From NCBI RefSeq assembly GCF_003334255.1, contig NZ_QOWU01000034.1: a stretch of 56,700 bases of DNA; one strand, given 5' to 3'. Source of the DNA: Escherichia coli (lineage in GTDB: Bacteria > Pseudomonadota > Gammaproteobacteria > Enterobacterales > Enterobacteriaceae). Position numbers and translations under genes: made by a program. Position 1 is the first letter of the stretch; each line of letters starts with the position of its first letter. The notes beneath the pieces were generated by a model. The model did no database searches, was not told the DNA's origin, and saw only the letters and a program-made list of their open reading frames with translations. Positions 53,527 through 54,362 of the stretch are shown in pieces.

Positions 53527-53552
53527 AACACTCCCCTGTAAAAAAATAAATA

Positions 53553-53569
53553 AAGTGGTCTGACCTGAT
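53553..53569. promoter_or_regulatory. FadR operator-like site upstream of fadIJ
   Basis: aagtggtctgacctgat, close match to the FadR consensus AACTGGTCCGACCTGTT, 27-43 bp upstream of the fadI ATG. Confidence 0.6.
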
Positions 53570-53644
53570 CATAGTCTTAACCATTTTTTTACATTTAGCC
53601 AAGTGGAGAAAAGGGAAAGTGGGAGCTATGACACAGAGAGAAAA

Positions 53645-53681
53645 GAAGAAGAGAAAAGAAAACGCCCCTGCCAGCAACTGA
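53645..53681 (-). terminator. Rho-independent terminator after yfcZ
   Basis: Minus strand acgcccctgtcagttgctggcaggggcgt followed by tttcttttctcttc. Confidence 0.75.
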
Positions 53682-53706
53682 CAGGGGCGTACGTACCCGA
53701 GAGGAA

Positions 53707-53991
53707 TTAACGCAGACCCAACTGGAAAATCAGCATTTCAGCTTCGCAGGCAAAAGTGAAATCGATATCCAGGCGCACACCGTCAGACTCTTCAGTGAAA
53801 GTCGGGGTGATTTTGCAAGGTTCAGATTCCACGCTACGGGCTTTTTCAGTCAGCGCCGCCAGCGTTTGCTCTGCTTCTGCGCGGTTTGCAAACACGCGGC
53901 TGTAAGACGCGGTGCAGTCGGAGTTGTCCATAATGGTGCCAACATCCATACAGCAGCAAACCGGGGTTTCATCAGCACTACATTTACTCAT
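53707..53991 (-). CDS. yfcZ: UPF0381 protein YfcZ
   Basis: Start trimmed to ATG 53989-53991 (94 aa, MSKCSADETPVCCC...); divergent from fadL. Confidence 0.85.
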   Translation of the reverse strand: MSKCSADETPVCCCMDVGTIMDNSDCTASYSRVFANRAEAEQTLAALTEKARSVESEPCKITPTFTEESDGVRLDIDFTFACEAEMLIFQLGLR

Positions 53992-54236
53992 CGTTGATTT
54001 CCTCTGTATGTGCACCCAAGGTGCCAGATAAACGTTGTGGATATTTTACGCTTCCGGAAAGTGCTGCTCCAGTTGTTAATTCTGCAAAATCGGATAAGTG
54101 ACCGAAATCACACTTAAAAATGATCTAAAACAAAATTCACCCGAATCCATGAGTGCGCCACCTCCAAATTTTGCCAGCTGGATCGCGTTTCTTAGATCAT
54201 ATTTGAAAAAAGATAGAAACATACTTGCAACATTCC

Positions 54237-54253
54237 AGCTGGTCCGACCTATA
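54237..54253. promoter_or_regulatory. FadR operator site 1 in the fadL promoter
   Basis: agctggtccgacctata, strong match to the FadR consensus, about 110-126 bp upstream of the fadL ATG. Confidence 0.7.
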
Positions 54254-54260
54254 CTCTCGC

Positions 54261-54277
54261 CACTGGTCTGATTTCTA
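54261..54277. promoter_or_regulatory. FadR operator site 2 in the fadL promoter
   Basis: cactggtctgatttcta, FadR half-site-like sequence 8 bp downstream of site 1. Confidence 0.55.
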
Positions 54278-54362
54278 AGATGTACCTCAGACCCTACACT
54301 TCGCGCTCCTGTTACAGCACGTAACATAGTTTGTATAAAAATAAATCATTGAGGTTATGGTC

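Follow-up and report, generated by a model that had tools for sequence, protein, structure and literature searches.

FadR boxes on either side of yfcZ in Escherichia coli are known operators of fadL and fadIJ, and yfcZ is probably an independent transcription unit

We find that the small gene yfcZ of Escherichia coli is probably an independent transcription unit that lies between two FadR-controlled promoters. The three FadR-like boxes at this locus are the already characterised, and already known, operators of the fadL and fadIJ promoters, and they flank yfcZ only because the gene sits between these two promoters. Since the boxes miss the yfcZ promoter, we infer that yfcZ is most likely not itself a direct target of FadR.

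The window analysed here is a stretch of 56.7 kb of the E. coli chromosome. It carries fadJ (50072-52216) and fadI (52216-53526) on the minus strand, yfcZ (53707-53991) also on the minus strand, and fadL (54363-55703) on the plus strand, for which there is an alternative upstream ATG at 54357. yfcZ is located upstream of fadI on the same strand, separated from it by 180 bp, and is divergent from fadL. A region of 1.1 kb around the boxes is 95-100% identical to the corresponding sequence in 5,426 of 5,426 complete E. coli genomes, where fadI, yfcZ and fadL are annotated. For comparison with strain MG1655, window positions are converted to NC_000913.3 by adding 2,406,943, and the sites of Park et al. 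(2013) were converted to window coordinates by subtracting 2404965 from their U00096.2 positions. The YfcZ protein has 94 amino acids and belongs to the DUF406 (YfcZ/YiiS) family. An eight-sequence DUF406 alignment used as the query detected 533 relatives, from which 80 loci of other Enterobacteriaceae species make up the comparative set. Contexts outside those 80 loci come from 12 single look-ups and constitute a small sample.

Direct reading of the sequence confirmed the three FadR-like boxes proposed by the first-pass annotation, which are located at 53553-53569 (AAGTGGTCTGACCTGAT), just upstream of fadI, and at 54237-54253 (AGCTGGTCCGACCTATA) and 54261-54277 (CACTGGTCTGATTTCTA), upstream of fadL. 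The latter two are referred to below as OL1 and OL2. Scored with the consensus given in the review, aaCTGGTCnGACC(T/A)Gtt, the fadI box matches at 14 of 16 positions, OL1 at 13 and OL2 at 11. A search of the whole window for AACTGGTCCGACCTGTT, allowing up to three mismatches, returns exactly two matches, which are the fadI box and OL1. Shuffled windows yield a mean of 0.11 matches, and only one shuffle in 100 contained two. The boxes are also widely conserved. Of the 80 other Enterobacteriaceae loci, 78 have a best box of 12/16 or better at the OL1 position and all 80 have one of 11/16 or better at the OL2 position, and the yfcZ-fadI spacer contains a box of at least 11/16 in each of the 66 loci that could be scored. 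The low score of OL2, together with two further 12/16 matches in the window (at 8274 and 18238) that look like chance, might suggest that the boxes are themselves accidental matches to a loose consensus. However, the excess over shuffled windows, the invariance of the box core across 80 species and the placement of the boxes exactly on mapped promoters leave this explanation a negligible probability, and it is already refuted by the FadR binding seen in published gel shifts.

An additional FadR-like box (GGCTGATCGGACTTGTT, 12/16) is present elsewhere in the window at 34679-34695 on the minus strand, 67-83 bp upstream of the ATG of fabB (33392-34612, minus strand). We take this box to be the known FadR activator site of fabB, and with it the window has four FadR sites rather than three.

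The two boxes upstream of fadL (both on the plus strand) correspond to operators that have been studied experimentally. Feng and Cronan (2012) found two FadR sites at fadL, 8 bp apart, to which FadR binds in gel shifts, and this binding is relieved by long-chain acyl-CoA (PMC3460868). The fadL transcription start has been placed 95 bp before the translation start (PMC3460868). Counting 95 bp back from the ATG at 54357 puts +1 at 54262, so that OL1 extends from -25 to -9, overlapping the -10 element TATACT (54250-54255), and OL2 from -1 to +16. fadL therefore carries 17-bp boxes over the -10 and +1 positions of its own promoter, the arrangement expected of a direct member of the FadR regulon. 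The ArcA site of fadL reported in the supplement of Park et al. (2013) is found in the window at 54202-54233 on the minus strand (ATGTTGCAAGTATGTTTCTATCTTTTTTCAAA). In the mechanism we propose, fadL would be transcribed rightward from 54262, and FadR dimers on OL1 and OL2 would cover the -10 element and the start site and block RNA polymerase until they are released by long-chain acyl-CoA.

The remaining box reads ATCAGGTCAGACCACTT on the fadI strand (minus), with three mismatches to AACTGGTCCGACCTGTT. According to a 2022 review, fadIJ is directly repressed by FadR through a site that overlaps the start site, and the review cites Campbell et al. (2003) for this FadR site of fadIJ (yfcYX), including FadR binding in vitro (PMC9329746). 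The ArcA site that Park et al. (2013) assigned to positions -26 to -6 of fadIJ corresponds in the window to 53594-53574 on the minus strand (atgtaaaaaaatggttaa, from their supplement), a block that is conserved among relatives. With this site as reference, transcription of fadI would start near 53568, which is within the FadR box, and fadIJ thus also has the box on the start site that is typical of direct FadR control. A CRP site is likewise said by the 2022 review to exist in the fadIJ promoter (PMC9329746). A motif scan identified a CRP-like sequence (TGGGAGCTATGACACA, 8/10) at 53620-53635, centred at about -60 from the inferred fadI start, which may be the site meant. Transcription of fadIJ would then run leftward from about 53568, with one FadR box over the start site, the ArcA site immediately upstream of this box and the CRP-like site farther upstream. 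A PdhR gSELEX peak has also been reported at 'fadI/yfcZ'; the corresponding weak PdhR-like box (cAgcGGTaaaACCtgac, 7/14) at 53506-53525 is inside the first fadI codons and outside the yfcZ-fadI spacer.

The fadL operators OL1 and OL2 were reportedly described by DiRusso and colleagues in 1993. The sites in the window are identical in sequence and position to the FadR operators of the E. coli fad regulon, and no difference was found for the sites themselves. The mechanism of that regulon is promoter occlusion relieved by acyl-CoA, which involves two boxes between -25 and +16 at fadL and one box at the fadIJ start. Because these are textbook operators, the FadR sites as such add nothing new.

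In addition to the two FadR-controlled promoters, the locus appears to contain a separate promoter for yfcZ. We aligned the yfcZ-fadL spacer of the window with those of the 80 other Enterobacteriaceae species (81 sequences). The spacer is densely conserved and measures 362-378 bp in all 80 species. A putative -10 element (TAAAAT, 54043-54048, minus strand) of a sigma-70 promoter is invariant in the 81 sequences, and its position places the yfcZ start near 54036, equivalent to MG1655 position 2,460,979. The centre of a sigma-70 ChIP-seq peak at 2458992, equivalent to window position 54027, agrees with this start. Another conserved block of the promoter is CTGGAG at 54071-54066 on the minus strand, and a conserved ribosome-binding site is found nearer yfcZ.

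Farther upstream, a CRP site (TGTGATTTCGGTCACT, 9/10) at 54097-54112 is conserved in the 80 species. Feng and Cronan showed by gel shift that this site, at a distance of 157 bp from the fadL start on its upstream side, binds cAMP-CRP (PMC3460868). They assigned the site to fadL and called it atypically distant, -157 being too far for the alpha-CTD (PMC3460868). Relative to the inferred yfcZ start, the centre of the site (54104.5) is at about -68.5, and class I sites are centred near -61.5, -71.5 or similar positions on the same helical face. Because it lies some 68 bp upstream of this start and is conserved in all 80 species, the CRP site may belong to yfcZ rather than to fadL. If so, the published model of the fadL promoter would be tidied. 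An FNR-like site (ATGATCTAAAACAA, 8/10) is present at 54120-54133, within a nearly invariant block at 54113-54135. Between yfcZ and fadL, Myers et al. (2013) observed an FNR ChIP peak with summits at window positions 54135 and 54189, and they named yfcZ as its estimated target; the expression of this target was not changed in their fnr mutant.

The yfcZ leader carries a motif resembling the -24/-12 elements of sigma-54 promoters (TGGCACcttggGTGC, 54012-54026, minus strand), which doubles as a small hairpin of 4-5 bp. The two halves of this motif, CTGGCACC-N4-GTGC, are conserved around a variable spacer, and three species have one compensatory change from C-G to G-C. A published RpoN/NtrC gSELEX peak at 2458968 (window position ~54003) coincides with the motif. 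Transcription initiated by sigma-54 from this motif would begin within the Shine-Dalgarno region, in line with the 'repressive RpoN site' idea in the literature. Folding of the yfcZ leader revealed nothing beyond what shuffled sequences show (z = -0.27).

At its 3' end yfcZ is bounded by its own terminator, a feature that had already been noted in the first-pass annotation and that our analysis bears out. This intrinsic terminator (53690-53662, minus strand) has a 13-bp stem with nine G-C pairs followed by the T-run TTTTCTTTTCT. The predicted hairpin has a centroid energy of -24.9 kcal/mol and a minimum free energy of -25.8 kcal/mol (z = -5.6), and none of 200 shuffled sequences folds as well. 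A G+C-rich hairpin that precedes a U-tract and is more stable than shuffled sequences is characteristic of Rho-independent termination. The loop differs among relatives, but both arms of the stem are conserved. An Rfam scan of 53300-54600 produced a sole match, a sub-threshold hit to Spot 42 over this terminator, which at 21 bits against a threshold of 80 we regard as chance. The FadR box of fadI is located about 90 bp past the terminator and therefore cannot regulate initiation at yfcZ.

The fadI box might nevertheless be connected with yfcZ through an operon, in which transcripts from the yfcZ promoter read through into fadIJ and FadR at the fadI box acts as a roadblock, making yfcZ part of a FadR-gated unit. 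The three genes do share one strand and a conserved order, yfcZ-fadI-fadJ, with only 180 bp between yfcZ and fadI. However, the intervening terminator is both strong and conserved, and the spacer has its own sigma-70 peak for fadI as well as the ArcA site, the FadR box and the CRP-like site. In one species the spacer has a length of 1.7 kb and the genes are still present. Moreover, fadIJ expression is 4-fold higher aerobically, whereas the yfcZ promoter is more occupied anaerobically. Such an operon is highly improbable on this evidence, and even if it were formed, FadR would act downstream of yfcZ without regulating yfcZ itself.

Our preferred reading, in which yfcZ is transcribed independently, is in keeping with the position of the operators on the other side of the gene. 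With a yfcZ start near 54036, OL1 and OL2 lie 201-241 bp upstream (246-286 bp from the yfcZ ATG), beyond the promoter of yfcZ and on the core promoter of fadL. In the footprinting across 80 species, no full FadR box is conserved at a distance of 200 bp or less from the yfcZ ATG, and between 53992 and 54236, from the yfcZ ATG to OL1, no 17-mer other than the boxes named reaches 10/16. FadR activates from about -40, as at fabA. At yfcZ there is neither a box over the core promoter, as in repression, nor one near -40, as in activation. Near the -35 region conservation is limited to a half-site, AACTGGAG, whose partner half varies freely. For this reason we rejected as a site the FadR-like match of 11/16 that four species have near -75 of yfcZ.

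The first-pass annotation had suggested that yfcZ, lying between FadR sites, may be a member of the fad regulon. Its identification of the boxes as FadR sites at fadL and fadI stands, as these coincide with experimental operators, but regulon membership of yfcZ is unsupported by the anatomy of the locus. It does not follow from a position between FadR sites, given that yfcZ has a separate conserved promoter and that the fadI box is past its terminator. We propose instead that the locus would consist of three separate transcription units, fadL, fadIJ and yfcZ. The last of these would be monocistronic, transcribed leftward from its own promoter near 54036 with its -10 element TAAAAT and its upstream CRP and FNR-like sites, and ending at the strong terminator.

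Published expression data can be compared with this arrangement. At the promoter of yfcZ, sigma-70 occupancy increases from 59.7 reads under aerobic conditions to 303.4 under anaerobic conditions (Myers et al. 2013, Table S2). The same table shows an anaerobic fall from 113.9 to 7.8 at fadI and from 149.6 to 5.3 at fadL. fadI, fadJ and fadL are listed as 3-4 fold higher aerobically in Table S12 of Myers et al. (2013), in which yfcZ does not appear. The FadR i-modulon of Sastry et al. (2019) consists of fadA, fadB, fadE, fadH, fadI, fadJ and fadM, without yfcZ. This absence is weak evidence, because fadL is also missing from the 2019 list. The 2022 review remarks on the linkage of fadL and fadIJ and does not mention yfcZ, which is not among its FadR-repressed fad genes (PMC9329746). 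In O157:H7, yfcZ clusters with ackA, yfiD and hyp genes. The yfcZ mRNA, expressed from its native promoter, has also served as a model substrate of RppH.

It is possible, if unlikely, that yfcZ is co-regulated with fadL through the spacer that they share. FadR or LldR bound at OL1 and OL2 would in this case act at a distance and make yfcZ a peripheral member of a fatty-acid stimulon. The effect could be transmitted by supercoiling coupling between the divergent promoters when fadL is derepressed, or by looping to upstream elements. LldR, a FadR-like regulator, bound the OL1 and OL2 sequences in vitro, and the gSELEX paper prints both fadL boxes as LldR targets. In an lldR mutant the mRNAs of yfcZ and fadL were both reduced more than 2-fold, and under nitrogen limitation they were reduced 3.1- and 3.5-fold, respectively (both by RT-qPCR). 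The pairing of the two genes is invariant in the 80 species, with a nearly constant spacer length, and Morganellaceae and Pasteurellaceae have also kept the pair, including where the locus lacks fadIJ. However, a distance of 201-241 bp separates the operators from the inferred yfcZ start, which is far from the activating geometry known from fabA. In addition, sigma-70 at yfcZ responds to oxygen in the direction opposite to that at fadL and fadI, and the FadR i-modulon does not include yfcZ. We therefore retain the reading of yfcZ as an independent unit.

The order fadL, divergent yfcZ, fadI and fadJ is present in all 80 Enterobacteriaceae loci. This order recurs in Morganella, where one box resembles OL2 and another is present at fadI. 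In Proteus the contig is short and consistent with this order, and the divergent pair of fadL and a DUF406 gene is retained. In Haemophilus influenzae and an uncultured member of the Pasteurellaceae, a DUF406 gene is found head-to-head with a fadL homologue, with spacers of 196-206 bp. fadIJ is absent from both of these loci, and the genes downstream differ between the two. The H. influenzae spacer contains an 11/16 FadR-like box that is too poor to interpret. The best FadR-like box of the uncultured Pasteurellaceae locus (AAGTGTTCCGACCAGTC, 13/16; L090, 4906-4922) is mid-way in its 196-bp spacer. This box is about 55 bp from both putative -10 elements, unlike the promoter-occlusion arrangement of E. 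coli.

In Agarivorans and Corallincola, a FadL-family gene is found 1.7-3.7 kb from the DUF406 gene, with an ECF sigma operon between them. The spacer upstream of the DUF406 gene has no FadR-like box of at least 11/16 in either genus; in Agarivorans, a 12/16 box is present at the FadL-family gene instead. In this small sample, then, the FadR box does not travel with the DUF406 gene when synteny changes. Five more distant DUF406 homologues have unrelated surroundings, and in four further contexts there is no fadL nearby.

Conserved divergent gene pairs are said to predict functional association, a principle of comparative genomics attributed to Korbel et al. in 2004. fadL and its DUF406 neighbour resemble such pairs, since their head-to-head arrangement is found in 80 of 80 Enterobacteriaceae loci, in Proteus as well as Morganella, and in two lineages of Pasteurellaceae whose flanks differ. 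They differ in that one partner of such a pair is typically a regulator, whereas YfcZ is a 94-amino acid protein with a ferredoxin-like fold and no DNA-binding signature. As far as gene order and spacing can indicate, a conserved divergent pair with a nearly constant spacer length is what one would expect of divergent genes with coupled functions. A distinctly doubtful extension of this view is that YfcZ is a conserved functional partner of FadL, the fatty-acid channel of the outer membrane, that the pair is older than the split between Enterobacterales and Pasteurellaceae, and that yfcZ, although it has a promoter of its own, is coupled to fadL through the length-constrained spacer and so reacts to long-chain fatty acids via FadR or FadR-like regulators that use the same boxes. 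The invariant head-to-head pairing with fadL in two bacterial orders provides a lead that may connect the uncharacterised yfcZ with fatty-acid uptake or envelope physiology.

YfcZ scores 157.2 bits against TIGR00743, for which the cut-off is 71.45, and this places it in the YfcZ-YiiS family. PF04175 is recorded on all matches. The sole sequence match of YfcZ in the PDB is YiiS (2K3I). In the AlphaFold model, residues 24-94 are predicted with confidence and form a beta-alpha-beta-beta-alpha arrangement with a ferredoxin-like fold. A fold search of the PDB gave significant matches only to YiiS (2K3I), VC_A0919 (2KHD) and VPA0419 (2JZ5), which are structural-genomics entries for DUF406 proteins. 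YfcZ shares the fold of these three proteins and differs from them in its Cys-rich N-terminal stretch (C12-C14 and C26), which is disordered in the model. Neither the structure prediction nor the PDB fold search gave any hint of lipid binding. A separate observation concerns a protein of 4,963 amino acids in the representative library (P0183), which matches YfcZ in 17 separate stretches (E = 3e-11) and, going by these matches, would be a giant protein of DUF406-like repeats.

Two further features of fadL were observed. The 5' UTR contains a 29-nucleotide stretch at 54287-54315 (CAGACCCTACACTTCGCGCTCCTGTTACA) that is almost entirely conserved at 95% or more in the 80 species, which exceeds the conservation of most of the promoter. 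Folding of the fadL 5' UTR yielded no significant structure relative to shuffled sequences (z = -0.38), and the stretch is a candidate that could be the target of a small RNA or a protein. The FadL protein itself falls into two classes: compared with the protein of the window, its identity is 70-80% in 69 species and 90-96% in nine. The split is independent of taxonomy. Two genomes labelled E. coli carry the ~76% type, and the 91-96% type is present in E. albertii, E. whittamii, Citrobacter amalonaticus and Salmonella arizonae. The divergence is concentrated at about residues 180-300. FadL is a phage T2 receptor, and together with the two-class split this pattern suggests that its surface-exposed parts exist in two allelic forms or have undergone exchange.
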